Shown piece after piece: positions 46,963 through 63,203 of a stretch of DNA of 64,000 nucleotides. Every line of letters begins with the position of its first letter. Position 1 is the stretch's first letter. The stretch lies in IMG/VR virus record IMGVR_UViG_3300030117_006323, positions 27,171 through 91,170 of that record. The stretch is one strand, 5' to 3'. Source of the stretch: a virus. Both the position numbers and the translations under genes were made by a program. The notes beneath the pieces are model-generated. The model was given only the letters and a program-made list of their open reading frames with translations. It searched no databases and was not told the origin of the DNA.

Positions 46963-49206
46963 TCAATGCGCTCCTACATGAGCAGAAGGCTCCATACCCC
47001 ATGTTCTAGCGTCATCATGGGGCGGTGTTTCAGTACCTCCTTCATTTTTTGTCGTTTTCCTCGGGCTGTTGGCTGGATAATCTGGCTTATCTTCTCCTGC
47101 CCCAGCCGTGTCTTTGGCCTTTTTCATTCGACCACGCTTGTCTAAAGCCTCTCGGAGTTCTCGTAGCAAGCGTTTGATGTCTTGAGCATGGGCAAAACCA
47201 TACGAGCCGGGGCCCATGATATTCTTCTGAATATCACTTCCTTCAGAAGAATCCTCTGACATCTGAATTGAAGAAGAGGGGAGCCCCACCTGCGCAGGCT
47301 GGGGGAGAGGCGGCGCAGATGGGACTGTTGGGGGTGTCATAGGACTGAAGCCTGTGGGTGGTTTCAGTCTTGGCATTCTAGGTCTAGCCAGTCGGCGTAG
47401 AGATGGAATATTTGCAGCAGCGGCTTGTCCGGGTAATGTTCCACCAAGACGCCCGCCACCAGTAGGACCGGGGTATTGAGTGCGTTCACCAAACAAAGCG
47501 TGAGGCGAATAAGGTAAAGGCACGTTACCCTGAAGTCGTCGTCGCAATTGTTGACCGTAGTATTGTCTGTATGATGCAGGGAATTGTCTCATTGGTTGCT
47601 TAGTTTGCACACCAAGGTGAGACATGTGCACTGCCAGAGGCGCACCCATCAGACCACCTTTGATACTGTGGACTCGATGACGAGGTGACAAAGTCCGGCT
47701 ACGAGCCTTGGCTCTTCGGGATGTACCAGTCCATGGACGGCGTCCACCGGGTGGCCCATGGAACTTTGGTTGGGCCCACTTTTTTGCGTGTTCTTTTCGG
47801 CGTTGAGTAGTTGTTCCGGCTGAACCAATTTCACCAGCGGCCATTGCTCCTTCGCCTTTATCCTTTTTCTTAGACTTCAACAATGACCAAGCAAGGTCCA
47901 TTGGTTCACTTAATTTCAAATTCCCTTCTTCGTCAAACATCTCTTCTTGGAATGCTTGCTGTTCATGGAGATTCGCATCAATAGGTGGCATCTCATATTC
48001 GCCTTTTGGATTCTTTAATCCGTGCTGTGTGTAGTAAGTATCAGAAATTTCTTCTACTCGGTTATCCCAAGTCCCTTGTTCTTTTAGTGCTGCATAAATA
48101 GATTCGCTGGTATAAGGACCATGACCATTAACCCACGCCATTGATTTATCAGGCGTGAGCCAAGTGATGATTGGTTGTTCTGGATTATCATATTTTAACA
48201 ATTCAGACCAAGCGTAATCCATTGGCTCGCCTGTCTGAATATTGTCATCACCAGCATTATCCCATTCGTGAACAGGGACACCTTGTTGCCACAGGTCGTA
48301 ATGTTTTCTGTATGATGGCGGTGCCCACATACCGTCTTGGTGGTATGTATGAATACCTTGTTCTTCAAGTAAGTCTTCATATTTATCTCGTTGTTCATCG
48401 GTTATGTAATTCCAAAAATCAGGGTTATCCCAATCAGTAATTGCCATAGTATCCTCATACCAATGATTATGCAACATTTCAGGTGACATTTCATTCATTA
48501 TGGAAGCATAGTATTCATCATTCTTTTCATTTGCATATTGGATTTGTTCTACTGCTTGTTCCAGCGTTGGGTTGAATAATTCAGGGTGAGATTCCGGTGT
48601 TATTGGTACGAAATCATCATCTTCTTCATCATCCCAATATGGTGATTCACCCGGCCCACCGGGTTGATACATGAACCAATCAGAACTTCCCGGCGTCACA
48701 TCGGCAGGTGCTTTCAGTAATTCCGACCAAGCCTCTTCTAAGAATTGAGAACGATACACACCCTGCGGTCCAAGTAGAGGGGGAATACCACCCATTGCAG
48801 AACCAGTTCCAGTCTTAGCGCCAACCGCTTGGTCAAGTTCAGCACCACGAGAACCACTTGCTCCTGTCAATTGTGACAGTTCTGCCTGCATTTCATCTTT
48901 AGGAGGAGCCTCGCCATCTCCTTCTTGCGTTACTTCTTGACCGGGGGCTAATTCTTCGCCGGGTAAAACAGATTGCATGACATCCTTGTTCTTAATTTTG
49001 ATATGATGGAGGCGTTGGCGATTTTTTGTTTCCTCTTTCTCGCGCTTATCTTTTTCATTCTTAGCAGCGGCAATTTCGGGGTCACCGTAGCCATGAGCAT
49101 AACCAGTCTCATCATCCTCATAACCGAACAGGCGTGTGGATTCTGAACGAGGGTTGTACATACGGGTATCAGACCCGCGACCCATACCACCTGTCCCGCT
49201 AGGCAT
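46963..49206 (-). CDS. Tagged modular polyprotein-like protein (3 tags)
   Basis: EEAWSELLK, GEPMDYAWSELLK and SEPMDLAWSLLK separate acidic modules and a basic R/P-rich module. Confidence 0.65.
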   Translation of the reverse strand: MPSGTGGMGRGSDTRMYNPRSESTRLFGYEDDETGYAHGYGDPEIAAAKNEKDKREKEETKNRQRLHHIKIKNKDVMQSVLPGEELAPGQEVTQEGDGEAPPKDEMQAELSQLTGASGSRGAELDQAVGAKTGTGSAMGGIPPLLGPQGVYRSQFLEEAWSELLKAPADVTPGSSDWFMYQPGGPGESPYWDDEEDDDFVPITPESHPELFNPTLEQAVEQIQYANEKNDEYYASIMNEMSPEMLHNHWYEDTMAITDWDNPDFWNYITDEQRDKYEDLLEEQGIHTYHQDGMWAPPSYRKHYDLWQQGVPVHEWDNAGDDNIQTGEPMDYAWSELLKYDNPEQPIITWLTPDKSMAWVNGHGPYTSESIYAALKEQGTWDNRVEEISDTYYTQHGLKNPKGEYEMPPIDANLHEQQAFQEEMFDEEGNLKLSEPMDLAWSLLKSKKKDKGEGAMAAGEIGSAGTTTQRRKEHAKKWAQPKFHGPPGGRRPWTGTSRRAKARSRTLSPRHRVHSIKGGLMGAPLAVHMSHLGVQTKQPMRQFPASYRQYYGQQLRRRLQGNVPLPYSPHALFGERTQYPGPTGGGRLGGTLPGQAAAANIPSLRRLARPRMPRLKPPTGFSPMTPPTVPSAPPLPQPAQVGLPSSSIQMSEDSSEGSDIQKNIMGPGSYGFAHAQDIKRLLRELREALDKRGRMKKAKDTAGAGEDKPDYPANSPRKTTKNEGGTETPPHDDARTWGMEPSAHVGAH

Positions 49207-49623
49207 TTACTCCTCTCCTGTCAAATACTCAAAAGTCGCCCGAGCACGGCTAGCCAAGTTATGGTAAAAATTCTTGATACGAGGGGGATGCGAAAAACAA
49301 CGAGCCATATCTGAGCATAGATGCTCAAAATCAATCAAGGCGTGATACGTTACATTCCTCAATGCAAAAACATCAGGGCCATCTTCTTCCAACAACTCTA
49401 CAAAGCAGTCATACAAATTTTCGACTGACATGCTGTAACTTTCAATTTCTGGATTTCTGATTTGTTGCTGCAAATAATGTATCCAACGAGATACACATTC
49501 GTGCACGCCATCAAAAAAAGGCTCAATTTCATCATCTTCTAATGGGCCTTCTCCGTGCAAAAGATGCGTGTAAGGAGTACCGTAAGCAAGCAAAATATTC
49601 ATGGGGATGCGTAAACCTCTCAA
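49207..49623 (-). CDS. Hypothetical helical protein
   Basis: ORF coupled to neighbours. Confidence 0.5.
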   Translation of the reverse strand: MRGLRIPMNILLAYGTPYTHLLHGEGPLEDDEIEPFFDGVHECVSRWIHYLQQQIRNPEIESYSMSVENLYDCFVELLEEDGPDVFALRNVTYHALIDFEHLCSDMARCFSHPPRIKNFYHNLASRARATFEYLTGEE

Positions 49624-50309
49624 TCTAACACCTCCACATCTTCATTTTCCAAAAGCCTCTTTTTGACACGCCGCCATACTTCTGGGCTTTCTTGCGCCAA
49701 TTCAACTTTCATGATATTGATTGTTTGATTGACAGTCTGTGCTTCGGGTTCAGTCCACTTCTCTTCAATTTTGAGTAAATCCTTGATACTCTCTCTGACT
49801 TCTTTGTGAAGTGTCACAGCATCGCGAACAAACCCTTCTTCGTGGACACTGCCTTCCGCCATTAATTGCTGAAGTTTATGATTTAGGCCTTCTACATTTT
49901 GTCTCAATGTTTTGACTTCTGTCCCAGCAGACAGTGCGACCTCTAACGCAGCACTCTGGCGAACAAGAGGTTGGAAATGTTCTCTCATGTGGTGGTAAAC
50001 TGTAGATTCTGGAATTTCTGTTTCGTTGGCAATTTCTTCGCTAGAAGTGGTGCCTTCGTAGTATGCCTTCTCAATTTCTGCTCTTTGCGGATGAGAACAA
50101 ACAGGGCAAGATGGATTGGCTCCGTGGATGTAATCGCCCATGTGATTTCGGAAGTGACGGTCTGCTGTATTTGCTCTCCAACCCATTTCTTTGTCAAGGT
50201 CTTTACAAGTTCTCACACCTTGCAAAAGAGATTCTTCTAATTCATCTCTATCGCTGTGTTGACAAAACGCGCAGGAGCGCTTTGTAACTCGCTCTCGCTC
50301 AGCCATCAC
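49620..50309 (-). CDS. Tandem Zn-finger/HTH protein with coiled coil, terminase small subunit candidate
   Basis: Two repeats CxxCxH..R.E.E...G.....H...H, then a coiled coil; first gene of the unit leading to terL. Confidence 0.55.
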   Translation of the reverse strand: MMAERERVTKRSCAFCQHSDRDELEESLLQGVRTCKDLDKEMGWRANTADRHFRNHMGDYIHGANPSCPVCSHPQRAEIEKAYYEGTTSSEEIANETEIPESTVYHHMREHFQPLVRQSAALEVALSAGTEVKTLRQNVEGLNHKLQQLMAEGSVHEEGFVRDAVTLHKEVRESIKDLLKIEEKWTEPEAQTVNQTINIMKVELAQESPEVWRRVKKRLLENEDVEVLD

Positions 50310-50331
50310 TCTCTATGAGAGTGGTACAGTG

Positions 50332-50344
50332 GATAAGCCTTTAG
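50332..50344. promoter_or_regulatory. Divergent promoter region
   Basis: Minus-strand CTTATC 22-25 nt before the GTG/ATG at 50309/50306; plus-strand TTTAG about 25 nt before the ATG at 50370. Confidence 0.45.
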
Positions 50345-50366
50345 GCGAAAGGCGGCCTAGGAGGGG

Positions 50367-50648
50367 GTGATGAGGAGATTATCGAGAGCGCCGAAAATTC
50401 TGGGAGTGCCCATCCGGGCAAAAACTGCAATCGACCTTGCAAAGGCAGCAAAAGACATCACTGCAAGGCGTTTTGTCCCTGAAGAAATCAAGCAACAAAG
50501 AATAGAAATTTGTCGTGGTTGTGACCGTTGGCACGAAAACTCACATCGGTGCCTTGAATGCGGCTGCCAAATGAGAGTCAAAACAGGACTTCAAAGTAGC
50601 AGTTGCCCATTAGGAAAATGGGATTCTTATCGGGCAATCCGAGAATAG
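50367..50648 (+). CDS. Small Cys-rich protein (DUF6171-like)
   Basis: RIEICRGC..RCLECGC..K.....CPLGKW pattern common in marine viruses; GGAGG/GGTG RBS. Confidence 0.7.
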   Translation: MMRRLSRAPKILGVPIRAKTAIDLAKAAKDITARRFVPEEIKQQRIEICRGCDRWHENSHRCLECGCQMRVKTGLQSSSCPLGKWDSYRAIRE

Positions 50649-50881
50649 ACATTTGTGAGCATAAGCATGCTCAAAAACAAACCACCCATTACGAATGTCA
50701 AATCATTTTGACTCAATTTACCGTGGGCAAACGCTAAGACAAAAGCAAACAAAATAATGAGACTCAAAAGTTGCACCATAATCATGTCAATGATTACTTT
50801 TTTCTGTGGATTCAAGACATCCATTGCTGAGCGTTCTAAGCCAAACGGCATAATTGTTCCTTTGTTTTTCATCCTAATCAC
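50627..50881 (-). CDS. Small two-TM membrane protein (holin-like size and topology)
   Basis: Two hydrophobic helices: IMVQLLSLIILFAFVLAFA and FVMGGLFLSMLML. Confidence 0.55.
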   Translation of the reverse strand: MIRMKNKGTIMPFGLERSAMDVLNPQKKVIIDMIMVQLLSLIILFAFVLAFAHGKLSQNDLTFVMGGLFLSMLMLTNVYSRIAR

Positions 50882-51495
50882 TTCATCCCAATAAGTCCTC
50901 TACCGAGCGCTCCTACACCTTGTCCTGCTCTTTGGAGGAAGCCGGGGTCAGCGAGCGCTGAATCTAATGCTGTCCCTAGCATAGATTGCTTGGTAAAATT
51001 GATGATTTGGTCTTGAAGAGCAGAAGCGTCAGTCTTGACCTTTTCAGCATCTGCTCTTACTTTTGCGAATTCGCTCACAATATTTTCACTAGAAATAGTC
51101 TGGAGATTATTGGGAAGAGATGAAGTGTCCAAACTCATGGTTCCTGTATCTTCATCAACAGCGAACTTTGCGTTTTTGAAAAATTCAACTATGACCAATT
51201 CCATCATGCTTGACATCATTTCTACATAGGCTTGGAATCCATGGCCAGAAACCCATCTTTCCATGGGATATGTCGCATTCAACAAAGCGACCATCAATTC
51301 CATTTCAGAAGGAGGAGCAACTGGCTGTTGCACTAAATGCTGCTGCCCAAAAGATGCAGCCAAACCTTGAGTAAACGCACCGCCGACAGGGGCTTGTTGT
51401 GCCCAAGGATTGGTCACTGAAGGTCCAGAAGATACAGTAGTTCCGAGATTCAAAGTAGGCCCAGCGGTGGCAGGTTTAGAGTTGAATAGACCCAT
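50878..51495 (-). CDS. Hypothetical protein with Gly-rich amphipathic C-terminus
   Basis: Likely start MGLFNSK at 51495 after GGAGG. Confidence 0.55.
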   Translation of the reverse strand: MGLFNSKPATAGPTLNLGTTVSSGPSVTNPWAQQAPVGGAFTQGLAASFGQQHLVQQPVAPPSEMELMVALLNATYPMERWVSGHGFQAYVEMMSSMMELVIVEFFKNAKFAVDEDTGTMSLDTSSLPNNLQTISSENIVSEFAKVRADAEKVKTDASALQDQIINFTKQSMLGTALDSALADPGFLQRAGQGVGALGRGLIGMK

Positions 51496-51499
51496 GCTA

Positions 51500-52459
51500 T
51501 CATACCTCCTGTGGGGCCACAGGTTCATTTACCTGTTGGACTTGAGCGGGCACTACCATGCTATTTTGCTGTAACATGCTGTTAAAAGCCTCTTGTGCTT
51601 GTTGCTCCATGGCTTCTAATTCATGTTGAAAAATCCGCAAATCAAAGATTATCATCGTGACATCATTCAATTTAGTTACTGGGTTTTGATAATGCAAGAT
51701 GTCAATACCATTTGTGTTCTTGCTGTCTCTTTCCAATTGAGTGAAGAACTCTGCGTATTTTTGCAACATTGGAGGGGTATTGTCTTTTTTCTTGATAGAA
51801 GAAATAGGTACAGCAACTGTAGAGACTCCTTTTTTGACTCTTTCTCGGATTGATTTAGGATTTTCAAGACGTTCTTTTTCTTCTTCTGCTTCCCATTTGG
51901 TGAGTAAATGGTATAGGTGCAAATGTTCAGGACAATAAGTGCCTCGCATTTTGCGACCGCTAGTTACACCTTCTCTAGCGATAAACGCTTCCGCTTCGCC
52001 AGTAACTGGATTAGTCCAATACATATCCCAAAGACTGCGCCCAGTTTCTTCATCTGTAATACGCATGTAAAGATTATCGTATTGAATCAATTTTTTGACA
52101 TCACAACCATCGACAACACATGTGCCTGTATCTTTACTATGACGATATTTTCCACCAAACCACCAACGACGGGGGGACCACCAAGCGCGCTTAGTAGGCC
52201 TCAAAAGACGATAGGCTTGTTTGATGTCCTGCTTTCTGGCTTTGATTGGGTTGGGGTGTCTACTTGGGTAAAAATTTACCTTGGGTACTTCGATATTCTG
52301 TTCTTTAGATGCGCGTTGCATTTCTGATTGCGCAACTTGTTGTTCCAATAATTCACCGTAAGTCAAATTTTTATTGCCTTGCTGTGATAATGCTAGCAAA
52401 TGTTCTTGGTTCGCAGCAGAAAGAGGCGCTCCTGCCGCTGTTGTTCCTAACAAATTCAT
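51500..52459 (-). CDS. Hypothetical protein with possible Zn site and Trp-rich segment
   Basis: CVVDGC...YCPEH; AWWSPRRWWF; coupled to the upstream gene. Confidence 0.55.
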   Translation of the reverse strand: MNLLGTTAAGAPLSAANQEHLLALSQQGNKNLTYGELLEQQVAQSEMQRASKEQNIEVPKVNFYPSRHPNPIKARKQDIKQAYRLLRPTKRAWWSPRRWWFGGKYRHSKDTGTCVVDGCDVKKLIQYDNLYMRITDEETGRSLWDMYWTNPVTGEAEAFIAREGVTSGRKMRGTYCPEHLHLYHLLTKWEAEEEKERLENPKSIRERVKKGVSTVAVPISSIKKKDNTPPMLQKYAEFFTQLERDSKNTNGIDILHYQNPVTKLNDVTMIIFDLRIFQHELEAMEQQAQEAFNSMLQQNSMVVPAQVQQVNEPVAPQEV

Positions 52460-52644
52460 TAATCTCCCTCCACAGGGTAAGCGACTAGTTTGAAAGAGTC
52501 ACCATTTGGCTTCAATTCCCAGCGAATTTTCTGACCTGCGACCAAGCCTAGTTGCCTGACTGCCCAACGAGGGATTGTGGTTCTCAATGAATCACTTTTG
52601 GCCGAAGTTTTTACAACCAAAGTAGTGTCAATGGGGTAAGCCAT
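52459..52644 (-). CDS. AbrB/MazE/SpoVT-like DNA-binding protein
   Basis: SDSLRTTIPRWAVRQLGLVAGQKIRW swapped-hairpin signature; start MAYP 23 nt after a TATA-like box. Confidence 0.8.
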   Translation of the reverse strand: MAYPIDTTLVVKTSAKSDSLRTTIPRWAVRQLGLVAGQKIRWELKPNGDSFKLVAYPVEGD

Positions 52645-52667
52645 GAACCTCCCACAAGGAAGGACAG

Positions 52668-52679
52668 GATAAAGGTTGC
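52668..52679 (-). promoter_or_regulatory. BRE/TATA promoter GCAACCTTTATC
   Basis: Identical 12-mer also at 55052-55063; 23 nt before ATG 52644. Confidence 0.65.
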
Positions 52680-52698
52680 TCATGGAGGCAATTCAGTC

Positions 52699-53193
52699 TT
52701 ACATCTGCGGGAGTTGAGGTATGCCCATTCCTTGAAGTGATTCAAGAGTGACAGGTGGAGCGCCTCTTACACTTGGGTCCATCGCCGCCGGGCCCCAATG
52801 GGGTTGTGTTGCCCCCGGTTCTCCAAAATAACTTTGTTCTGCACCGTGAAAAACCGGGCCGGTGTGTGTTTCTGCTTGATTATACTTTGGGTTTTCAGGT
52901 TTCAGCCTTCCAGTTAAATCATAATCTTGCGGCATACGTTGGACAGGATTTTCTGTAGGGTGTTGTGCATAAGTCCCTTGTTCGTATTGCATAATTCTAG
53001 GCTGTTTAATTCCTTGCCTTTCCATCATTCCTGTAATGGCAGGATGTAATGCTCCTTCAGGCATAAATCGGCTTGACCTTTCCACCCAATTCGGTCCCCG
53101 AGTCTCGACTAGTCTTGGCCTAACCAATTGCTGCTGTGGGTCTGCTTTTAGTAGTGCCCAAGCGTATTCAAAAGCGCTATTCATATTACTCAC
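52699..53193 (-). CDS. Tagged small protein
   Basis: N-terminal SAFEYAWALLK. Confidence 0.6.
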   Translation of the reverse strand: MSNMNSAFEYAWALLKADPQQQLVRPRLVETRGPNWVERSSRFMPEGALHPAITGMMERQGIKQPRIMQYEQGTYAQHPTENPVQRMPQDYDLTGRLKPENPKYNQAETHTGPVFHGAEQSYFGEPGATQPHWGPAAMDPSVRGAPPVTLESLQGMGIPQLPQM

Positions 53194-53512
53194 TGTCCAT
53201 CATCTCTGGTCGCTTAACACCAATTTTACCTGCGGGCACTCCTTGTGCCATAATATCTGTAGGAGCAGCCTCGGCTTCTGGGCCAGCGGGAGGCATCGGA
53301 GGCATAGCCTCCATACCACGACTTCCAGACATAGCAGCCGTCAATTCTTGCAAAAGACCTTCTGCTTGCTCCCGAAGTGCGGGGTCAGGGCTCTCAATAT
53401 TGGCATTTACGAAAGAGCGCAAACTCTGTAATTCAGCCGGAGTGTACTCTTTTCCAGCAGGAGAAACAGGTCGTGCTTTGAGCAAAGACCACGCCAAATC
53501 GAATGGGCCCAT
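53186..53512 (-). CDS. Tagged small protein
   Basis: N-terminal GPFDLAWSLLK. Confidence 0.6.
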   Translation of the reverse strand: MGPFDLAWSLLKARPVSPAGKEYTPAELQSLRSFVNANIESPDPALREQAEGLLQELTAAMSGSRGMEAMPPMPPAGPEAEAAPTDIMAQGVPAGKIGVKRPEMMDSE

Positions 53513-53515
53513 GCC

Positions 53516-54232
53516 CTACCCAGACAATAGGTCTATCATAGTATTTTCTACTTGCCAACCTATCCGAGTAGCCATAAAAGCCCTGCGTGTAGGGATGCCA
53601 TGTTTTTGCAAACGAATTAAATCTGGGCGAAAAGCATCGAACACTTTGTGTTCACCAATTCTGTCCTGCCCCCACAAAACTGTAGCATTGTCATCCCACC
53701 ATTTATCGGCTTTATTGGCCACAAGAACAATCAATTTTGGAGCATAATTTTTTCCTCTCCACCAAGTAGATAATTTTCGATAGCGGTATTGTCTATTGAC
53801 AAGACAATCGACTAGATATTTGAATCCACCAACGGCTTGGATAGCATCATCGCCGCCTTTCATCGCTCTATCGTCAAACATGAAAACAACTGCTTCCACT
53901 TTACGATTCACCATATCATCAATCCAAAGATTCCAAAATCGCTCTTCTCCCCCTAAATCGGCAGAATATACAACACGCTTCTCGCCCTTCCAACTCAGTC
54001 TTTTCCGAGTAGGTCGGGGTAAAATGTAATGACCCATGATTTTGAAATGGTCGGTTCTATCTTCTTCTGCTATGGGTTCCATTTCACCCGGAGTTGTCAT
54101 GTATCTATCTAGAGTTGTTTTACCCACCATAGATGGACCGTAAATACCCACACGCCTCGGCTTCCAATAATTCCACAACTCTTTAGCCCAAACCATACCG
54201 CCGACAAGGGCAGAACCCGCAATAGCAGACAT
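53516..54232 (-). CDS. Ras-superfamily (Arf-like) small GTPase
   Basis: G1 GPSMVGKTT, G3 DLGG(E), AVVFMFD, G4 ANKAD, G5-like FMAT; N-terminal hydrophobic/amphipathic helix. Confidence 0.85.
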   Translation of the reverse strand: MSAIAGSALVGGMVWAKELWNYWKPRRVGIYGPSMVGKTTLDRYMTTPGEMEPIAEEDRTDHFKIMGHYILPRPTRKRLSWKGEKRVVYSADLGGEERFWNLWIDDMVNRKVEAVVFMFDDRAMKGGDDAIQAVGGFKYLVDCLVNRQYRYRKLSTWWRGKNYAPKLIVLVANKADKWWDDNATVLWGQDRIGEHKVFDAFRPDLIRLQKHGIPTRRAFMATRIGWQVENTMIDLLSG

Positions 54233-54478
54233 CTAGACCAACTTTTCCAATTGCCTAATTGCCCAATCACTCAGCCAATCTCCAGTGCTCTCCCAAAGAT
54301 TCCAATCAGTATAATGTTCAAAAGCAGACACAACGAATACGGCTATTGTCCCGAAAACTAAAACTTTAACCCAGCCCAATACACGTTCATACGCATTGTC
54401 TAATTCGTTGGCAATATGCATAGCCCGTAAAGTGGCTTCCGTAGCATCGTCACTCGGCGTCTTAAACAGCCAACCCAT
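54233..54478 (-). CDS. Single-TM membrane protein
   Basis: VLGWVKVLVFGTIAVFVVSAF. Confidence 0.6.
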   Translation of the reverse strand: MGWLFKTPSDDATEATLRAMHIANELDNAYERVLGWVKVLVFGTIAVFVVSAFEHYTDWNLWESTGDWLSDWAIRQLEKLV

Positions 54479-54487
54479 GAGAATACC

Positions 54488-55027
54488 TCACGACTCTTTC
54501 TTTTTGAATTTACCATCAGCGCCTCTGTTAGGTTCATCATCATCATCGAAAGAAACACCTAATGACATTGCTTCTTGAGCAGAGGCTCTGTGGTCTGGGG
54601 GTGATGGATTGAAAATCTTATCTTCATTTTCTAGTGCCCCCCATGTTGGCGAGCGTCCGGGGTTTTGTTCCATGTATCGTAATTCAGACTCTAATTGTGC
54701 TTCTTGCATTCTCAATTCAAGGTCCTCACGACGCGAATCAAAACCACGCTGCAATTCTCGATAACGATTTTGCCTGCGCCTTTCTGCTTCTTGCAAATGC
54801 ATACGTTCATCCATGTTTTGTTGGAAAAACATCTTAAATACATAATACCCAAGACCTTGCATTGCAAAACCGCCCATTGCGTAGGTGACACCATTCATAA
54901 CTGCGCCATCTAGACGAAGCCATAATTCTGCATCAAAAATTCCTACAGCCACGCCGACAAAAATAGACTGCGCTAAAATTAGACCCATCAAACGAATCTC
55001 GGCTTGTTGTTCAGCATCAGTTGCCAT
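54488..55027 (-). CDS. Two-TM membrane protein with coiled coil
   Basis: Two hydrophobic helices then an E/R/Q-rich coiled coil; start MATDAE 24 nt after the TATA-like box. Confidence 0.6.
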   Translation of the reverse strand: MATDAEQQAEIRLMGLILAQSIFVGVAVGIFDAELWLRLDGAVMNGVTYAMGGFAMQGLGYYVFKMFFQQNMDERMHLQEAERRRQNRYRELQRGFDSRREDLELRMQEAQLESELRYMEQNPGRSPTWGALENEDKIFNPSPPDHRASAQEAMSLGVSFDDDDEPNRGADGKFKKKES

Positions 55028-55051
55028 ATTTGAGGCCACACGAGGAGGCAA

Positions 55052-55063
55052 GATAAAGGTTGC
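55052..55063 (-). promoter_or_regulatory. BRE/TATA promoter GCAACCTTTATC
   Basis: Identical to 52668-52679; 24 nt before ATG 55027. Confidence 0.65.
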
Positions 55064-55068
55064 CTATC

Positions 55069-57909
55069 TCACTGAAGGATGTTTAAAGCCTCGTCTAAGG
55101 GCATTTCTGTCGGCGGTAGAACGCCTACTTGGCTACCGGCCATCCATTGCCAATCAGAACCATGGTCTTTCTCTGCTCTTTCCCTACCTTGCTTTTCGGC
55201 TGTTCTTGCTTGTGAGGCTGTGGGCTGAAATGCACTATGCATTACAGCCACTGGGGCACCATAAGCCCATGCAGCCGCTGTGCTTTTTTCTGGATTTGCT
55301 GTCGCATGCCCTAACCTTTCTTCTGCTGTTTGGCGAATTCGTTCATTGAAAGCATCGTTCAAAAGTTCAATTCTTTGTGCCTCTTGTTCTTGGTGTTCTT
55401 CTTGTTCTTTTTCCCGGCCACTTTGACGCATTGCCATTAATTTTTCTGATAAAGATGGGCCCATACCCAAATCCATCATTTGGTGGTCTGTTTGGGTTAA
55501 GTATGGAATAGCGAGACCAGATGCTCTGTCAAAATGATATTCATCTAAATTAGCCGCTTTATCTCGTTCAGCGAACCATTGTGGTGTAAATCTTTGTCGA
55601 GCGGCCAGTTCATACGCTATACTATTTTCACCACCATATTTTTCTGGGTCAATAAGAGGCTTTTGGGGATATTTACGTCTGAAGCGTTGTCTCAATTGGT
55701 CCAATATCGTGCCAGCAGGAAGAATAATACTGCCACCAAGACCCAATTGTTCAAGCAAACTCACAGGGTCTATTTTCAATAATTCCCAAGCATGGTCAAT
55801 TGGTGTTTCAGATTTACCTACTTGAGTAACTTCATCCCCGGGATACAAAGGTGGTCTGCCTTGTGCCATTCTTTGTTGTTCTTGATGAGCAAGTAAATCC
55901 CAGCCTGTTAAATTAGCAATACGCTCTTCTTCTTTCAATCTTGCTTGCATCGCCGCTTGCTGTTGGTCGTTGTGCACATCCCACGGCTCCATGGCCAATT
56001 CAGGGAATCTTTGTCTTTCTTCTTCCCACAATTTCATCTGCCTGTCTCTGAAAAATTGTGTCGGGTCCTCTTGCATCAAATCCAAAAATCCTTGATTGCT
56101 AATTTCTCGGGCTTGCTGTTCTCTGCCTGCTCCTTGCTCTAATCTTCGCAATAATGAAAATACTTTGGCTCTTGTTTCTGGGTCCAAATCTTCTCGGTGA
56201 CCACCTTCTTCACCGGGAACTCTCAAAATGCGTCTTTGTTCAGCAGGGTCCTCATAGAGTTCTTCAGGCCCACCCATCGCTAAAGTGTGGCCTAACATAT
56301 CCATCAAAGGTTGTGCATAATGACGAATATAGCGATTTCTGATTTCATCAGGTTTTTCCATTGCATTGGCCATATTTCTAAATCTTCTCGCAGCAGCAGT
56401 GTGACCAGAGTCTTGTAATAATTCTGCTTCTGCTCTCAAATCTTCTACACTCACTGACTCTTGATGTGTGTAAGGACGATGTGGCTCTTCGTCTTCTTCA
56501 TCTTCTTTAAGCAAACGGAAAGCAAGGTCCATTGGTTCACCTGTTTGCAGCCATCCTTCCCCAGATGTTAATGGTATGGGGTTTTCTCCCATCCGACTGT
56601 CAGCCATTGCGTCAGTCCAATTAGTCACATAGTTTATTGCAGGTTGAGGGGCTGTCAGATATTGCCTTGGTATATCCCCGTAATGCGCAAATGTATGTGC
56701 ATTCATGACTGGGTCCCATAGCGGTTCAACTGGGTTACCTTGTTCAGCCATATCTCGGAAGAATTGTTCTCTGATGCCAACCATTAGTGGTTTTCTTTGT
56801 GTCCCTTGGTTTGGATTTTCAAAACCTGCTTCTTCTTGCTTTTTACGTTGGGCCATCGCGGCTTCTCGGGCCCCATAATTTGCATAACGCTCGGCTGTCG
56901 AGAGGTCCCCTGTCCCAAACACAGCAGGTGGAATATCTTCATTAACGGTCTCCACAATATCTCCGGGCCTAACCTTTTGCCGTCCTGTTGCGATTTGAAA
57001 TTCACCGGGTGTCAGTCCTTCTGCTTCAATTTGTGGAGCACGAGTATGCCTTGTTCCGTGATAAGCAACGACATCACCTTGTGAAGATGGCCAAAATGGC
57101 ATAAACTCGCCAAGTTCTTGCTGATTCCTCAGCGGCCCTGTTGTATGAGTGCCTGTATAATCCAAGTCTACTTTGAGCAACCGCATGGCGATGTCCATAG
57201 GTTCGCTTGCACGAAAATCAGAAGATGACATTTCTTCATCGAGATTCTGTGGCTCTAGATTACCCGGATTCATATCCGACATGAGTTCATACAGTCGATT
57301 CATGATTTCCTCTTCTGACATTTGTTTGATACGCGCCTCAAGAGTATCTACATCTGGATGTGGACCTACATCTGCTTTAGGATTAGGGACACTGGTTGGT
57401 GCACCGGGGGCCCCTTCAAAGAGAGACCAATCTGGATTCTGTGTATCCTCGTGATAAGCCTCTCTTAATGCTGGGGCCTCATTTTCTTGCAACTTTTGCC
57501 TTCGCTCTAATTCGTGTTGCAGCATAATTACTTCCGCTGTTTCGGGTTGAATGCCAGAAGGAGTCCTTTCGTATAAATCAGCATCAGGGCTGAAAGGATG
57601 GTCATGTCCAAAAGGATGCATGGCATATTCTGGTGATGGCCCAGTAGAGACTCCTTCTGTGACTCTTCTGTTTCTTTCTATGATGAAGGGATTAGCGTCT
57701 TGGGGGAATAGGTTAGCGAACAGATTGGCGTGCTGAATAAGTTCTGCTTCCGTCATGTGCGGAATTTCATCAATCGCCGGAAGTCCAAGGTTTGTAAAAT
57801 GGTCTTGAAGTTCTTGAGGGTCGCTAAAATCAACAGGAGGTGGTACATCTATAGTCGGTGGGCCTTGATATTCATCATCATCTTGTTTGATGATTCTGAC
57901 GATGCCCAT
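55069..57909 (-). CDS. Tagged polyprotein-like protein (946 aa) with an ADP-ribosyltransferase-like module
   Basis: Three internal tags plus a degenerate C-terminal one; module 2 has VVAYHGT..I..EGL..AVFGT.D...A.RYA..DIPRQYL. Confidence 0.65.
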   Translation of the reverse strand: MGIVRIIKQDDDEYQGPPTIDVPPPVDFSDPQELQDHFTNLGLPAIDEIPHMTEAELIQHANLFANLFPQDANPFIIERNRRVTEGVSTGPSPEYAMHPFGHDHPFSPDADLYERTPSGIQPETAEVIMLQHELERRQKLQENEAPALREAYHEDTQNPDWSLFEGAPGAPTSVPNPKADVGPHPDVDTLEARIKQMSEEEIMNRLYELMSDMNPGNLEPQNLDEEMSSSDFRASEPMDIAMRLLKVDLDYTGTHTTGPLRNQQELGEFMPFWPSSQGDVVAYHGTRHTRAPQIEAEGLTPGEFQIATGRQKVRPGDIVETVNEDIPPAVFGTGDLSTAERYANYGAREAAMAQRKKQEEAGFENPNQGTQRKPLMVGIREQFFRDMAEQGNPVEPLWDPVMNAHTFAHYGDIPRQYLTAPQPAINYVTNWTDAMADSRMGENPIPLTSGEGWLQTGEPMDLAFRLLKEDEEDEEPHRPYTHQESVSVEDLRAEAELLQDSGHTAAARRFRNMANAMEKPDEIRNRYIRHYAQPLMDMLGHTLAMGGPEELYEDPAEQRRILRVPGEEGGHREDLDPETRAKVFSLLRRLEQGAGREQQAREISNQGFLDLMQEDPTQFFRDRQMKLWEEERQRFPELAMEPWDVHNDQQQAAMQARLKEEERIANLTGWDLLAHQEQQRMAQGRPPLYPGDEVTQVGKSETPIDHAWELLKIDPVSLLEQLGLGGSIILPAGTILDQLRQRFRRKYPQKPLIDPEKYGGENSIAYELAARQRFTPQWFAERDKAANLDEYHFDRASGLAIPYLTQTDHQMMDLGMGPSLSEKLMAMRQSGREKEQEEHQEQEAQRIELLNDAFNERIRQTAEERLGHATANPEKSTAAAWAYGAPVAVMHSAFQPTASQARTAEKQGRERAEKDHGSDWQWMAGSQVGVLPPTEMPLDEALNILQ

Positions 57910-57996
57910 GGCTATGCCTCATCCGTTGGGACAAAGAGGTAACAAATAGGTTTTCGGTCGTAAACCTGAATACCTTGCTACTTATGCCAGAGGGTA

Positions 57997-58575
57997 ATGA
58001 GCGTCCAGCATGGAAGCATTCTTGTTGTTCCTTCAAAGGAACATATCAGGAAAAACCCTGCATTCAAGAAAGCGCACCCTGCATTACTCGCTGTTTTACC
58101 TATGCTAATATCAGCAGCGGGTAAAGTAGTGGGCGGAGCCATCGGTTCGCCTATGAAAATGGGCAAAAAAATCATGGGAATGAATCAACAATCTGCAAGT
58201 GGAACACAGAACGTATCACAAATGGCAAATGCAGCGGCTGATGCAGATGACCAAATAGTACAACAAACACGACAAGCAGCAACACAACACGCACAAGTCC
58301 AAACAGGTGAATCAATGGATTTGGCTTGGCGTTTATTGAAACGCGCTACTTCTCCTGAAGCATTGCGACACAAAAGAGAATACGATACACAGTACGAATC
58401 TACACCTGAACGTGTAAATTATCGTGAAGAACTCAATGCTGAACGAAGAAAAAGAGGTATCATGGGTCAAGGGGGACCTGATATGAGTCACACTAAGCGA
58501 GGAGTTCTTGTCGCAGAAAGCCCACACGCAAATCGTGCTCGTCATTTCAAAGAGCGTGGGACTCTAAAACCGTAA
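57997..58575 (+). CDS. Tagged protein with a C-terminal basic, degenerate HNH-like module
   Basis: GESMDLAWRLLK then ELNAERRKRG..DMSHTK.G.LV.E....NRARH. Confidence 0.65.
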   Translation: MSVQHGSILVVPSKEHIRKNPAFKKAHPALLAVLPMLISAAGKVVGGAIGSPMKMGKKIMGMNQQSASGTQNVSQMANAAADADDQIVQQTRQAATQHAQVQTGESMDLAWRLLKRATSPEALRHKREYDTQYESTPERVNYREELNAERRKRGIMGQGGPDMSHTKRGVLVAESPHANRARHFKERGTLKP

Positions 58576-58688
58576 AGAAAAGTTCAAGGAGTGAACGTGC
58601 TTCGGCTAATCCGGCTCCCATCGGGTTTTCCGTATTTCTCACCTTCGGTAATCACGGCTTCGGCATCCATCCTCACCCGGTGGGGCCA

Positions 58689-58811
58689 CTACTTTTTCTG
58701 GTGGATGACAAATGCCTTTGATTCTGTGAATAAAGAACGATATTTTCCTAAAAATACTCCTAGAAAAAAACCAAACGCCCAAAGGGAGAAAATAAATGTC
58801 CAATTATCCAT
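58689..58811 (-). CDS. 40-aa single-TM microprotein (not in ORF track)
   Basis: Manual translation MDNWTFIFSLWAFGFFLGVFLGKYRSLFTESKAFVIHQKK; starts 1 nt after the preceding stop. Confidence 0.5.
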   Translation of the reverse strand: MDNWTFIFSLWAFGFFLGVFLGKYRSLFTESKAFVIHQKK

Positions 58812-58812
58812 T

Positions 58813-58908
58813 TTATTCGCCACCAAACATCAATTCAGCAAAAATAATTCCTGCTGTATAGCAAAGAAACCACAAAGCAAGAAAAATTGCTATGTGTTCT
58901 GCGTACAA
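58813..58908 (-). CDS. 31-aa single-TM microprotein (not in ORF track)
   Basis: TTG start directly after the preceding stop; MYAEHIAIFLALWFLCYTAGIIFAELMFGGE. Confidence 0.4.
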   Translation of the reverse strand: MYAEHIAIFLALWFLCYTAGIIFAELMFGGE

Positions 58909-59070
58909 TTAGTCATCCCGCCCATAGCGATGACCTTCGTACATATCGTTCACAAAGTCCTCAACCGAAAATTCCAATTCGATTTCGCCGAAACTTCGGA
59001 GAGCAATCCAAGTGTTCAAGCAAAAAATTCCTATCAAACATACAAGCGCAGCAAATACAACCCACATCAT
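58909..59070 (-). CDS. 53-aa N-terminal TM microprotein (not in ORF track)
   Basis: ATGA overlap with the lyase stop; MMWVVFAALVCLIGIFCLNTWIALRSFGEIELEFSVEDFVNDMYEGHRYGRDD. Confidence 0.5.
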   Translation of the reverse strand: MMWVVFAALVCLIGIFCLNTWIALRSFGEIELEFSVEDFVNDMYEGHRYGRDD

Positions 59071-59930
59071 ACCAATAATCCCCCAATAATACCATTAAGG
59101 AAATTAAGAGGGGCTTCTAAATCTGTCAATTTGATATTACAGTCAATATTATTGCTTTCAGCCCATTCAACCAAATCTTCAGTAGCCAAATTACCACCTG
59201 TGTTAGGCATAAACGGGCAGCCACCAAGCCCGCCAATACTAGAATCAAACTCACAAATACCAAAATCATACGCGATTTTTACATTTTCAAACAAACCTGT
59301 GCGCCCTTTGGGGCCTTCATGCAAATGAAGGGCCAAATTTTCAGGAATATAACCACAAATATTCAGAACGTGACGCAAAAGAGCAGGATAAACGCTACCA
59401 ACTGTATCACAAAGAACTACTGTGTTCCCAATAGATGCTGCCTCTTGGACACAAGTAATCAATTTATCATCAGATATAGGGCCTTCAAAGGGACAACCAA
59501 AGGCACAAGACACGTAAACACGGATATTTTCCTTTGGAATGCCCGAAAAAGCAGTTTGTAACATTTCAACGGCTTCAATTCGGCTTTTTCCGAGATTTCT
59601 TCGGTTAAATTCGTCTGAAGGTGAGAAAAAGGCGTTAAAATGGGTCGCACCTGCCGAAATAGCGCGTTTTAGACCCTTTTCATTAGGAATTAAGGCCCCA
59701 AACTCCATTTTTTTGTCAAAAAAAGGTAAAACTTCACGAAAAACGGCTTCAGAGTCTGCCATAGTGGGCACAAAACGTGGATTCACAAAAGAGCCGATTT
59801 CAATTGAATTTAAGCCACTTTTCGCCAATAAACCGATAAAATGGACTTTTTCGGAGGTCGAAAACCGCTTTTTGAGGTTTTGCAGACCGTCACGGGGGCC
59901 CACTTCGTAGATTTTAATGTCCGAAAGCAC
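59067..59930 (-). CDS. hmgL: Hydroxymethylglutaryl-CoA lyase (DRE-TIM family), auxiliary metabolic gene
   Basis: IYEVGPRDGLQN, IEIGSFVNPRFVPTMAD, YVSCAFGCPFEG, LCDTVG, LHLH, DSSIGGLGGCPF, GNLATED. Confidence 0.92.
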   Translation of the reverse strand: MLSDIKIYEVGPRDGLQNLKKRFSTSEKVHFIGLLAKSGLNSIEIGSFVNPRFVPTMADSEAVFREVLPFFDKKMEFGALIPNEKGLKRAISAGATHFNAFFSPSDEFNRRNLGKSRIEAVEMLQTAFSGIPKENIRVYVSCAFGCPFEGPISDDKLITCVQEAASIGNTVVLCDTVGSVYPALLRHVLNICGYIPENLALHLHEGPKGRTGLFENVKIAYDFGICEFDSSIGGLGGCPFMPNTGGNLATEDLVEWAESNNIDCNIKLTDLEAPLNFLNGIIGGLLV

Positions 59931-59954
59931 GATTTAAGGGAGATTGAAGCAGTC

Positions 59955-59960
59955 CATAAG
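59955..59960 (-). promoter_or_regulatory. TATA-like box CTTATG for hmgL
   Basis: 24 nt before the GTG start at 59930, same spacing as other units. Confidence 0.5.
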
Positions 59961-60007
59961 TGTAGAAGTTACATTAACTACATTAAGTGCACTCAGGTAA
60001 ACTAATG

Positions 60008-61456
60008 TCAGAGTCGCCATTCTGTCGCAGAAGGATTAGGGTCGGTGGACGTACCCATGACAGCGTTATAGGCCGGTTGTGCCGTCGGCGGCGTTGGTAG
60101 AGCGTTGGCCTCGGCGTAGGCTGCACGAATGGCATCGGCTTCGGCTTGAGCAGCGGCACGAGTGCGCTCCATTTGGAGAGCGACATCGTAAGCGTTACGA
60201 TAATCTGCTGGACGTTGTATTGGATTAGTTGTCATATCATGACCTGTTAAATCACCTACATTAAATGCACTTTGCCGTAATTTCATGTCAGCAAAGGCGC
60301 TCAAAGGTGCCGGGCGTGTTACACCCGGCATATTTTGTGGTATTTTAACAGCGACATCGCCCCATGGCATAGGTAAAAATCGACCGTACTTGCTTTCATA
60401 GCCTTTAGCCTGACCTGTTTTTGTGTCAAATTGGGTTTGCTTTGATTTTGGTTCCCAACCCGGTCTAACATTTGGTGACAACCGCCCGGGAGCCACATTA
60501 GGTGGCATCCAAGCAGCACCCTCGACCATAGGCCGCAAACTACCAAACTCTGGTTGTGAAAGGTCTCTTGTGTAAGCAAGCGGTGCGAATCTCATGGTTC
60601 TGTGAGAATCAGACATCTCGCCGATACCCTCATGGTCATCAGCCAATTCATCCATTCTGTTTGCCCACAAGTCGCGACCTCGCTTATCCTTTGGCTCAGA
60701 CATAGTTACACCGCGTGGTAAATTTTTACTGTATTTCATGTGAAATGGCCCAGACATTTCATTTCGGGCATGTGACATTAATGAAGTATTTTCTGGCAAT
60801 GCATTTATCACCGAATTCAATAATTTTTCATACATACCTTGTCTTTGGAATTGAGGGTAAGTTGTACCTTGTTCAATATACACTGTGCTCGGTTTTTTGT
60901 CGCTACCGAGCCTTCTTCGTCCGGGTTGGGGTGGCACCACATCAAAATCAGGGTCTGAACTTCCACTAGTCATGACAGAAGATACAGGGCCGTGTTCCGG
61001 GTGCACTAATCTATACAAGCCCTTATCATGCGTCAAATACAGATTATGTGGGTCAGTGATTTTAATTGGCAGTTTTGTGGTTCCACCTCTTTTTGCCCAT
61101 TTACGATGTCGCGGATTTTCTGGCGTTGTCTGCATTAAACCAGATGAAGTATCGAAATCACCTAACGACATTTGCCTCTTGAGCAATCGCCAAGCGAGGT
61201 TCATTGGTTCACTACGAGTAAAGCCTGTTTCTTCGTTGAAAGGTGTGTCCTTGAATGATGGCTTCCCCAGAAGGGTCTGTGTGGCTACTCCTGTCAAAGG
61301 TCGCTTTAATCTCAATGGATGCACCGCACCTGCTATGCCATGTTCAATGGCCTCTTTCCACTCCGGTGAAAGTTCATCTTCATCTATGTCTTGACCGGGA
61401 TGGAGCATTCTATCTTCATCCTTGAGCAATCGCATAGCGAGGTCCATTGGTTCCAT
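60008..61456 (-). CDS. Tagged protein with a GNAT acetyltransferase-like module
   Basis: Tags MEPMDLAMRLLK and SEPMNLAWRLLK; VYIEQGTTYPQFQRQGMYEKLL resembles GNAT motif A. Confidence 0.65.
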   Translation of the reverse strand: MEPMDLAMRLLKDEDRMLHPGQDIDEDELSPEWKEAIEHGIAGAVHPLRLKRPLTGVATQTLLGKPSFKDTPFNEETGFTRSEPMNLAWRLLKRQMSLGDFDTSSGLMQTTPENPRHRKWAKRGGTTKLPIKITDPHNLYLTHDKGLYRLVHPEHGPVSSVMTSGSSDPDFDVVPPQPGRRRLGSDKKPSTVYIEQGTTYPQFQRQGMYEKLLNSVINALPENTSLMSHARNEMSGPFHMKYSKNLPRGVTMSEPKDKRGRDLWANRMDELADDHEGIGEMSDSHRTMRFAPLAYTRDLSQPEFGSLRPMVEGAAWMPPNVAPGRLSPNVRPGWEPKSKQTQFDTKTGQAKGYESKYGRFLPMPWGDVAVKIPQNMPGVTRPAPLSAFADMKLRQSAFNVGDLTGHDMTTNPIQRPADYRNAYDVALQMERTRAAAQAEADAIRAAYAEANALPTPPTAQPAYNAVMGTSTDPNPSATEWRL

Positions 61457-61457
61457 A

Positions 61458-62882
61458 TTACCACTTGACCTTGTCGGCCCAATATGCAGCGCTCATTGGT
61501 CCTCGTTTGATATTTTTCTGATGTCGGGCTTTGAACGATGCACGCTTTTTTGCTCTCTTACCTTTTGGATTATCTTCTGTAACGGTGTCTGCACCTTGTT
61601 CACCGAACCGAATTGTTTTGACCTTACCGCCTGACCTTGCTACAACCACATGTGATTTCTTTGGATGATTTGGTGTGCGCTTTGGTTTGTTGTAACCACT
61701 TACTCCCGCTGCCTTTAGGCGCGGGTCAGGTTTCTTCTCCTTGAGTAACCCCCAAGCAAGGTCCATGGGTTCGCTTTTCATCTGGTATCCACAAGAAGGA
61801 CAAGTTGATAAATTTGTATCTACAGCAGAGCCGCAACCCATGCACATAGTTTGAGTCGGTTGAGTTGTTTGCTGTTTAGGTGCCCCAATAATCCCTAAAG
61901 CAGCAAGTTGGTCAATTTGGGCTTGCACTTCTGGGCTGACTTGAGCAGCCATAAGAGAACGCTGTCTTTCTTCTTCCTCTTGTTGTAAGCGCTGTCTTTC
62001 TTCTGCGTCTTTTGCTTCTTGCTCTAATCGTAGTTTTCTTTCAGGGCTTGTTTCGACAGTTGAAAAACTCCCTAAAGATTCAAGCAATTTCCGCGCAAGT
62101 TGTTCGTAACGAGGCATTCCGCGCTGTGGCCAATTTTTTTTGGGTACTTTAATTCCCAATGATGCCATCGTATCAGGTGTAATAGTGGCTATATCTGCTT
62201 CGTCAATTATTTGGTCTCGGTAAGCGCGTGTTGATATGTCGGGAATATCTGTGGCTTCTTCTGCTGCAAATTGATTACCCATGTCAAATAATCCGGGTAA
62301 CTCATGATGAATACCTCGATTCTCTAACGCTTGAGGCTTTAGGCTATTCTGTGGCATTACTTTGATAGTAGGCCGAGTCCCCTGACCTTTACCTGTCGTA
62401 CTATCCATTCCGCCAACTACACTTTTGACACCAATTTTACCAGTTTCATCTCTTACTAGAACTGGAGTGTATGTGTGCGCTGTTCTTGTTTGCCCACTGT
62501 CATCTTTGTATTCTTGAGGCTCATCTGTGTGTAAAGCCTCCATAATCATGGAAGGATATTCATTAGGGTTTTCTCCCATAGACAAAGCATCGGATAATTC
62601 AGGATGATTACGTAAAGTCAATTCAGCCATAGCCAAAGCCAATTCTTCAGGGGTATTGTTTTCAAACCCTTTAGGCATATCTTGTTTAGGCGCAAATCTT
62701 TCTTCCAGCCGTTTTTCATAATGCCCTCTGTCTGTGGCTTTTGGGTCAACGAATTCAGTGTGCCCCCATCTCATTTCGTCTAGAATATTTTTCAGAGCAT
62801 CATGATATTTCGGGTCACGAAATTGTGCCGGAAAATGATACGCTTTGAGAAGTAAGTCCCAACTTACTTGCAAAGGACTCAA
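61458..62882 (-). CDS. Tagged protein with Zn ribbon and a basic C-terminal module
   Basis: N-terminal SPLQVSWDLLLK; CMGC..CPSC; SEPMDLAWGLLK; then KTIRFGEQG..RASFKARH..SAAYWADKVKW. Confidence 0.65.
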   Translation of the reverse strand: MSPLQVSWDLLLKAYHFPAQFRDPKYHDALKNILDEMRWGHTEFVDPKATDRGHYEKRLEERFAPKQDMPKGFENNTPEELALAMAELTLRNHPELSDALSMGENPNEYPSMIMEALHTDEPQEYKDDSGQTRTAHTYTPVLVRDETGKIGVKSVVGGMDSTTGKGQGTRPTIKVMPQNSLKPQALENRGIHHELPGLFDMGNQFAAEEATDIPDISTRAYRDQIIDEADIATITPDTMASLGIKVPKKNWPQRGMPRYEQLARKLLESLGSFSTVETSPERKLRLEQEAKDAEERQRLQQEEEERQRSLMAAQVSPEVQAQIDQLAALGIIGAPKQQTTQPTQTMCMGCGSAVDTNLSTCPSCGYQMKSEPMDLAWGLLKEKKPDPRLKAAGVSGYNKPKRTPNHPKKSHVVVARSGGKVKTIRFGEQGADTVTEDNPKGKRAKKRASFKARHQKNIKRGPMSAAYWADKVKW

Positions 62883-63194
62883 TTACTCACCACCGGCTGG
62901 GGCCCGTGGTGCTACAACTGGTACTGGATTGTAAAGCGCATGTGTCAATGTGTTTGGTCCACCCGGTGCATCTTCAGCCCGTGGAGCAATAAATGGCTTC
63001 TTTACATCTGGTAATTTTGGCTTTTGGTTTTGGGGTGGGGGCATTTCAGTTGGCTCATCTGGAACTACTGGCCCTAGCCCTCTTTCAGCAGGTGACATTT
63101 GAGCGCCACTCTGAAGATATGAAAAAGCATCCAATTCAGGTCGGTAACGAGCAGAGTCTTTCAAAATCGTCCAAGCGATGTCAAAAGGCTGCAA
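62883..63194 (-). CDS. Tagged small Pro-rich protein
   Basis: N-terminal QPFDIAWTILK; GAGGTG RBS. Confidence 0.6.
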   Translation of the reverse strand: MQPFDIAWTILKDSARYRPELDAFSYLQSGAQMSPAERGLGPVVPDEPTEMPPPQNQKPKLPDVKKPFIAPRAEDAPGGPNTLTHALYNPVPVVAPRAPAGGE

Positions 63195-63203
63195 AATTAC
63201 ACC

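Follow-up and report, generated by a model that had tools for sequence, protein, structure and literature searches.

What does a small GTPase do in the genome of a tailed archaeal virus? The question is raised by a stretch of 64,000 nucleotides (the window), which is bases 27171-91170 of IMG/VR virus record IMGVR_UViG_3300030117_006323, a single 91,170-bp contig. On its minus strand, at 53516..54232, the window encodes a GTPase of 238 amino acids (aa) in a unit with small membrane proteins. According to a 2024 review, it is not known how tailed archaeal viruses lyse their hosts, and the players in their egress are completely uncharacterised (PMC10791045). The protein is a small GTPase of the Ras superfamily, and its unit is conserved across diverged viruses; as a tentative reading, the unit may serve GTPase-gated membrane disruption at the end of infection.

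A small GTPase of the Ras superfamily

The initial annotation reported G1, G3 and G4 motifs in the open reading frame (ORF) at 53516-54232 (-). All three are present: G1 is GPSMVGKT (residues 32-39), G3 is DLGGE (92-96) and G4 is NKAD (173-176), with the strand AVVFMFD. A G2 candidate (R59-T60-x-H62) and a G5 motif (ATRIG, 221-225) can also be recognised, and a tryptophan, W103, lies 11 residues past the G3 aspartate, Asp92. Among 153 full-length relatives, G32, G37, K38, D92, G95, N173, K174 and W103 are each conserved in all but one or two (151-152), and there is little or no variation at D92, G94, G95 and W103. The replacement of the switch II Gln by Glu (Glu96), also reported initially, is true of the window copy; across the family, however, this position varies, with Q in 68 of the 153 relatives, E in 58, D in 17 and H in 4.

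The ORF is not a chance one, since it has 476 homologues at E<=1e-3 among 5.8 billion proteins. A search with the family profile matched only 85 proteins among 1.84 billion representatives; none of these is a canonical GTPase.

The AlphaFold2 (AF2) model of the GTPase has a mean predicted local distance difference test score (pLDDT) of 61.8 and a predicted template modelling score (pTM) of 0.66, and its strands and helices run in the order b1-a1-b2-b3-a2-b4-a3-b5-a4-b6-a5, which is canonical for a small G domain. Foldseek matches the model to at least 500 small-GTPase chains at E<=1e-3; Rab27B is the best match (2e-7), and KRas and Rab33 are also at the top. VIA-align (48,161 chains) gives matches at Z 10-12 over 150-180 residues. 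These include SRbeta (2fh5_B; Z 12.1), Gs-alpha (12.0), Arf6 (12.0), the Asgard RagA-like protein LokiRagO (12.0) and Sar1 (11.2), while Ras and Rab proteins score approximately 10.2, 1-2 units below these five.

The NKxD motif indicates guanine specificity. Since G1, G3 and G4 are conserved and the predicted fold is that of a small G domain, the protein is a small GTPase of the Ras superfamily (TRAFAC P-loop). An unrelated P-loop ATPase is excluded by the NKxD motif and the predicted fold.

The GTPase fold and switch are already known, and some automatic annotations call members of the family 'GTPase SAR1 family protein'. In the literature searched, no description was found of the GTPase family, its viral host range or the six-gene membrane unit. 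The magrovirus literature searched mentions no GTPase either. As the initial annotation held, such a module is unusual for a tailed virus.

The N-terminal segment

Residues 2-16 of the GTPase are hydrophobic throughout, with a mean hydrophobicity of 0.64 and a hydrophobic moment of 0.03; an aromatic and basic stretch, KELWNYWKPRR (residues 17-27), comes after them. The hydrophobic stretch is kept in 96% of the 153 relatives. The initial annotation described an N-terminal amphipathic helix. This description fails, as the N-termini of Asgard Arf-like proteins scored in the same way have a mean hydrophobicity of 0.07-0.33 and a moment of 0.34-0.70. The GTPase starts M-S-A, without Gly2, and a C-terminal Cys for prenylation is found in only one of the 153 relatives. 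By its composition, we read the N-terminus as a constitutive membrane anchor, either a short transmembrane (TM) segment or a monotopic one, rather than a switchable amphipathic helix.

A conserved unit of small membrane proteins

On the minus strand, the unit runs in the order g187, g81, GTPase, variable slot, g319, g216 and g84. g187 (54488..55027 (-)) has two predicted TM segments, a charged coiled coil and a basic C-terminal tail, as seen in a 23-sequence alignment. It is listed as a 187-aa ORF; its probable start is the ATG at 55027, which gives 179 aa with TM segments at approximately residues 13-31 and 46-66. g81 (54233..54478 (-)) has one predicted TM segment and a Trp-rich acidic C-terminus in the family alignment, and its conserved N-terminal segment has the consensus MGRIFKTPxDDSVEETLRAMH. 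The spacer between g187 and g81 is 9 nt; that between g81 and the GTPase is 0 nt, the g81 stop codon abutting the GTPase start codon. The order first described for these three genes (2-TM coiled-coil protein, 1-TM protein, GTPase) is borne out, but the unit extends beyond them.

Downstream of the variable slot, g319 (51500..52459 (-)) encodes a soluble protein, the Zn-site protein, with a conserved Cys114/Cys119/Cys176/His179 site and a basic N-terminal segment in the family alignment. It is the best-conserved partner of the GTPase. Its AF2 model has a mean pLDDT of 77.5; a Foldseek search of the PDB with it gave only matches at E>1, and the ESM Atlas gave no usable match. A likeness to a connexin helical bundle was rejected (best VIA Z 5.9, within noise). 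g216 (50878..51495 (-)), the 'MGLF' protein, is of low complexity towards its N-terminus and helical towards its C-terminus. Its true start is probably MGLFNSK, at Met12 of the listed ORF; the resulting 5-nt spacer equals the median in other loci, and an MG(L/V)FG N-terminus is kept in distant clades. The sixth unit gene, g84 (50627..50851 (-)), encodes a predicted 2-TM protein of approximately 74 aa; a small 2-TM ORF directly follows g216 in 71 of 76 loci.

g187, g81, GTPase, g319 and g216 are found in this order in all 80 related IMG/VR loci (80/80), and g84 is adjacent in 74. The median spacers in the unit are 12.5, 5 and 5 nt; the gap between the GTPase and g319 is 7-685 nt in other loci. 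Unit order is kept in a clade where the GTPase is 38% identical (L089). It is also kept in the P0148 clade (140 contigs, 32% GTPase identity), without the sixth gene at that position. Across clades, g319 is homologous (hhalign probability 94.5, E 7.7e-8). For the 2-TM and 1-TM proteins in the P0148 clade, hhalign detected no homology to g187 and g81, so that these match in position and topology alone. The neighbours proposed in the initial annotation therefore co-occur with the GTPase in related viruses, in all 80 loci and in two distant clades. Related-locus searches with P0204 and P0128 (viral contigs) and with P0200 (metagenome contigs) found nothing.

Three near-complete genomes chosen through TerL, the large terminase, and not through the GTPase carry one GTPase copy each (3/3). 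Among 185,579 prokaryote species genomes, the gene is found on three short contigs of metagenome-assembled genomes (MAGs) only, each with the whole viral unit; a cellular contaminant is thereby ruled out. The unit is a single-copy core module around a small GTPase, present across deeply diverged magrovirus clades and without counterpart in known phage lysis cassettes.

The three MAG contigs (L083, L084 and L085; 8-16 kb) belong to bins that carry the labels Maricaulis, Promethearchaeati (Asgard) and Parvibaculum. They are most likely mis-binned magrovirus DNA and not evidence of host.

Pfam has no family at E<=1 for the window GTPase and none for g187, and PHROGs has none for nine proteins of the region. 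NCBIfam gives only TIGR00231, at E 0.065, besides a spurious acyl-CoA dehydrogenase stretch; in a phage collection searched by tblastn, the GTPase is unmatched.

A putative promoter precedes g187. The element GCAACCTTTATC (55052..55063 (-)) contains a TATA-like CTTTATC and lies approximately 27 nt upstream of ATG 55027. A loose TATA-like pattern is found upstream of the first gene in 35 of 82 related loci, whereas before the GTPase gene it occurs in 1 of 87. Such boxes are rare before the internal unit genes, which are preceded by GGAGG- or GGTGA-like motifs instead. In most relatives g319 follows the GTPase without room for a promoter, and for this reason the unit looks like one operon. Transcription of a single operon from one promoter is plausible. 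The initial annotation stated that one promoter drives the first three genes; the TATA-like box before g187, and its near-absence before the GTPase, fit this statement, which is plausible and unproven.

Two unit proteins start in a Met-Gly-(hydrophobic)-Phe type: MGLFNSK in g216 (51495) and MGWLFK in g81 (54478). Distant clades have MGLFG or MGVFG (L089:9534, L132:8413). A Met-Gly N-terminus conserved across clades looks like an N-acylation-type motif, which is unexpected in archaea.

Genomic setting

The left arm of the genome codes for a family B DNA polymerase, an RFC-like clamp loader, a PD-(D/E)XK nuclease and a group II chaperonin (thermosome). The minus strand of the window encodes TerL, a portal, an S78 prohead protease, an HK97/SU10-type major capsid protein (MCP), a tail tube protein and a 5,681-aa ORF. 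Magroviruses are linear tailed viruses of marine group II archaea, approximately 100 kb in length, with thermosome genes in groups A and D. The genome is classed as a magrovirus on its gene content, because the set of polymerase, clamp loader, thermosome and HK97-type head genes fits the published description (PMC5434244).

The GTPase unit is co-oriented with TerL, portal and MCP, and approximately 7 kb separate it from TerL, which is downstream; the P0148 clade has it two genes downstream of MCP. It also lies amid a region marked by a short peptide tag. The pattern [DE]xA[WFMY]x[LIM]LK (consensus EPMDLAWxLLK) has eleven strict matches on both strands of window 47875-63527, where 0.02 are expected by shuffling. 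These matches are confined to the right-hand 16 kb of the genome, and are located at the N-termini of small ORFs or between domains of long ORFs (three in g946). Yet none of the six unit proteins is tagged. Because they lack the EPMDxAWxLLK tag that marks neighbouring genes, the unit proteins are presumably not packaged.

In four near-complete genomes (G000, G002-G004; 91-106 kb), the distance between the GTPase gene and one genome end is 6-10 kb. This suggests that its position is fixed relative to the genome terminus. In the P0148 clade (L132:3689-6274 and relatives), the MCP gene is followed by a SAP-domain protein (PF02037, E 4.4e-10), a 98-aa ORF and then the unit; a DNA-binding SAP domain beside head genes is unusual.

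A possible role in virus exit

A late, membrane-directed role is suggested because the GTPase appears to be anchored, three small TM proteins accompany it, the unit is close to and co-oriented with morphogenesis genes, it has single-copy core status and its proteins are untagged. The GTPase is probably held at the host cytoplasmic membrane by its short hydrophobic N-terminal segment. It appears to be made from one operon with the 2-TM coiled-coil protein and the 1-TM protein, an operon that in most relatives continues into g319, g216 and the second 2-TM protein. Acting as a nucleotide-dependent switch or timer, the GTPase would govern how the small membrane proteins assemble or are activated late in infection, with g319 and g216 as candidate regulators or effectors. 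The likeliest outcome would be that the host membrane is permeabilised or disrupted for virion release.

This egress step is proposed because of the gene position and because the membrane proteins resemble holins in size and topology. The initial annotation had inferred a membrane-remodelling, egress or vesicle module, a reading based on analogy and gene position. Like phage holin cassettes, the unit contains several small proteins with one or two TM segments and charged tails, beside and co-oriented with late morphogenesis genes. In topology, g84, g81 and g187 fit the holin type (small, at least one TM segment, charged C-terminus) and are candidates for it; what defines a holin, the formation of lethal membrane lesions, is a functional property. 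Unlike phage holin cassettes, the viral unit has no holin-family match in PHROGs or Pfam and no endolysin, and it includes a GTPase; we know of no described lysis cassette that contains one.

GTPase-gated membrane disruption for egress is accordingly put forward here as a tentative reading, with a chance somewhat short of even. The fuller proposal, that magroviruses carry a GTPase-timed lysis or egress machine in which an anchored, virus-specific GTPase gates three small membrane proteins, is possible but more doubtful. If true, it would be the first molecular account of tailed archaeal virus exit and the first lysis system under a Ras-superfamily switch. The five or six genes are small and clonable, and provide a concrete test set for archaeal virus exit.

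Several points weigh against membrane disruption. The hydrophobic segment of approximately 15 residues is below canonical TM helix length, so the mode of membrane binding is uncertain. Confidence in the GTPase model is moderate. Switch II varies between Q, E and D, and hydrolysis may consequently be slow or dependent on a partner. None of the unit proteins matches a holin, lysin, PHROG or Pfam family. Finally, a position near head genes fits a role in assembly equally well. Co-folding of g187, g81 and the GTPase gave a score of 0.00, which counts neither way.

Relationship to Arf-like and vesicle-forming GTPases

The initial annotation called the GTPase Arf-like, and this label stands in part. 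A DxGG motif with Trp at +11 is shared by the viral family and 3/3 canonical Asgard Arf-like proteins, and occurs in 0/12 Ras-like proteins. Pfam Arf is the commonest weak match among 15 diverse members (9/15); only P0204 passes the cut-off (36.5 bits against 22.3). SRbeta (PF09439) is a weak match in 3/15 members, with a best E of 0.067. In the ESM Atlas, the nearest named neighbours are Arf-labelled clusters, which serve as a lead only. On the other side, the window protein does not reach the Arf gathering threshold (PF00025) and matches no Pfam family at E<=1. The absence of canonical GTPases among the 85 matches of the family profile also counts against membership. Profile comparisons by hhalign with Asgard sets are approximately equal, with the Ras-like set scoring at least as well (Arf-like E 2.6e-10, Ras-like E 4.5e-12), the references being from one Asgard genome.

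In a maximum-likelihood (ML) tree, a Heimdallarchaeial GTPase of 216 aa joins the viral family and four far members in one starred clade (99/93). This clade branches apart from the Arf-like sequences, and its sister is the Ras-like set (92/83); the tree references are from that same single Asgard genome, with no eukaryotic Arf, Sar, SRbeta or Rag. With this reference set, the phylogeny proposed as a check in the initial annotation does not nest the family among the Arf-like proteins. Our verdict is that the viral GTPases form a family of their own within the Ras superfamily, dominated by viruses and with switch II features of Arf/Sar type. Ras-superfamily GTPases are thereby extended to viruses of prokaryotes, and the viral family is linked to a Heimdallarchaeial GTPase family.

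The viral GTPase shares with Arf, Sar1 and SRbeta (PF00025, PF09439) the G-domain fold, DxGG with the invariant Trp at +11, the absence of a prenylation Cys and an N-terminal membrane-binding segment; SRbeta also has an N-terminal anchor. The basal P0204 and the Heimdallarchaeial protein both pass the Pfam Arf cut-off. In contrast to the Arf branch, the viral GTPase has no Gly2, its N-terminus is hydrophobic and not amphipathic, and it has Glu, Gln or Asp at the catalytic Gln position. Relative to Arf1 numbering, it has two inserts, one of approximately 17 aa between G1 and G3 and one of approximately 22 aa between G3 and G4. Although SRbeta ranks first by VIA, it is tied with Gs, Arf6 and LokiRagO, and no SRX-like partner was identified.

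The Heimdallarchaeial GTPase (L115:1489-2139, on contig C76 of Asgard MAG G001) is the closest cellular relative found (hhalign probability 97.2, E 4.5e-11, 139 columns; 51 bits to the family profile). Its family (213-216 aa) has 61 members with inconsistent names: Rab family, Arf-like and 50S ribosome-binding GTPase. It resembles the viral family in having Trp at +8/+11 after the G3 Asp and a long a3 insert before G4. Unlike the viral family, it has neither an N-terminal hydrophobic segment nor membrane-protein neighbours, and it adjoins a 2-oxoacid:ferredoxin oxidoreductase; its origin is Asgard, whereas the presumed host of the virus is Poseidoniales.

A second point of comparison is the ArvA-ArvB-ArvC system (OapABC). 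ArvA drives membrane vesiculation experimentally in Haloferax; in the arvABC operon, the Zn-binding ArvC follows the GTPase and is proposed to be a regulator like a GTPase-activating protein (GAP) (PMC10927574). Like ArvABC, the viral unit appears to combine a small GTPase of the archaeal world, with an N-terminal membrane-active helix, and a Zn-binding protein in one operon. The two differ in the G3 motif (DxPG in ArvA, L124, against DxGG in the viral GTPase) and in the three viral TM proteins, which are absent from arvABC.

These likenesses bear on the alternative that survives best. The unit could be a membrane remodelling or vesicle module like Arf/Sar1 or ArvA, in which the GTP-bound GTPase bends or buds the membrane (for vesicles or an assembly site) and g319 is GAP-like. 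DxGG with Trp at +11, the top VIA matches to SRbeta, Arf6 and Sar1, and the score of P0204 all point this way, as does the Zn-site protein after the GTPase, which recalls ArvC in arvABC (PMC10927574). However, the ArvA of G001, the single ArvA sequence used (found through OapB), aligns over only 44 columns (probability 56.8, E 1e-4), below the Arf-like and Ras-like sets (probability 90-95). No unit protein has a Pfam match at E<=1 to OapB (DUF2073, PF09846) or OapC (DUF2072); g319 has its Cys/His site, yet no similarity to these families can be detected. By its composition, the N-terminus is an anchor that is hydrophobic and constitutive, not a switchable amphipathic helix, and tailed viruses have no envelope, so that budding would have no obvious use. 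Remodelling is therefore considered unlikely, although it deserves more weight than the readings that follow.

Less likely readings: assembly, exclusion and loss of cycling

A role as assembly or maturation factor, in which the module would organise head assembly, cargo loading or DNA packaging at the membrane, draws on gene position. In the P0148 clade, the unit lies between MCP and further large genes of the morphogenesis region; in the window, it lies among tag-bearing genes whose products are putatively capsid-loaded, two of them inside the variable slot. Three dedicated small TM proteins are nevertheless unexpected for head assembly in a tailed virus, we know of no precedent, and the unit proteins are untagged. 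This role is quite unlikely.

Equally unlikely is that the unit acts in host takeover or superinfection exclusion, altering the host envelope, division or transport with no part in release. Small membrane proteins are typical of exclusion systems, and the variable slot takes accessory genes, as the range of GTPase-to-g319 gaps elsewhere illustrates. In contrast, the GTPase is a core gene, present once in every near-complete genome tested and retained even between deeply diverged clades, which fits an essential gene better than an accessory one; the unit is also co-oriented with late genes.

A non-cycling pseudo-GTPase, a scaffold for which nucleotide binding alone matters, is improbable: the catalytic Gln position does vary between Q, E, D and H, with Glu in the window copy, but the motifs that bind nucleotide and Mg do not vary, nor does the G2 Thr; Q remains the most frequent residue (68/153), and an acidic residue could position water.

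The variable slot and a small antisense ORF

In the window genome, the variable slot between the GTPase and g319 is 1,056 nt long and contains g108, g164 and g74. g108 (53186..53512 (-)) begins with a tag of EPMDxAWxLLK type and is found in 3/80 loci, outside the conserved unit; g164 (52699..53193 (-)), which also has an N-terminal tag, is found in 1/80. g74 (52459..52683 (-)) encodes a small AbrB/MazE-like protein (MazE_antitoxin E 0.011, below cut-off) and is found in 25/80 loci.

A second copy of GCAACCTTTATC is found at 52668-52679 (-), approximately 26 nt before an internal ATG at 52644 (Met14 of g74). The repeated 12-mer suggests a promoter of leaderless type and a shorter g74 product of 61 aa. 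In the window genome, the distal half of the unit may have a promoter of its own in this second copy.

Between g84 and a helix-turn-helix (HTH) gene, a putative 93-aa ORF is found on the plus strand (50367-50648 (+)), antisense to the main direction of transcription. It contains two Cys pairs (CRGC ... CLECGC ... SSCP).

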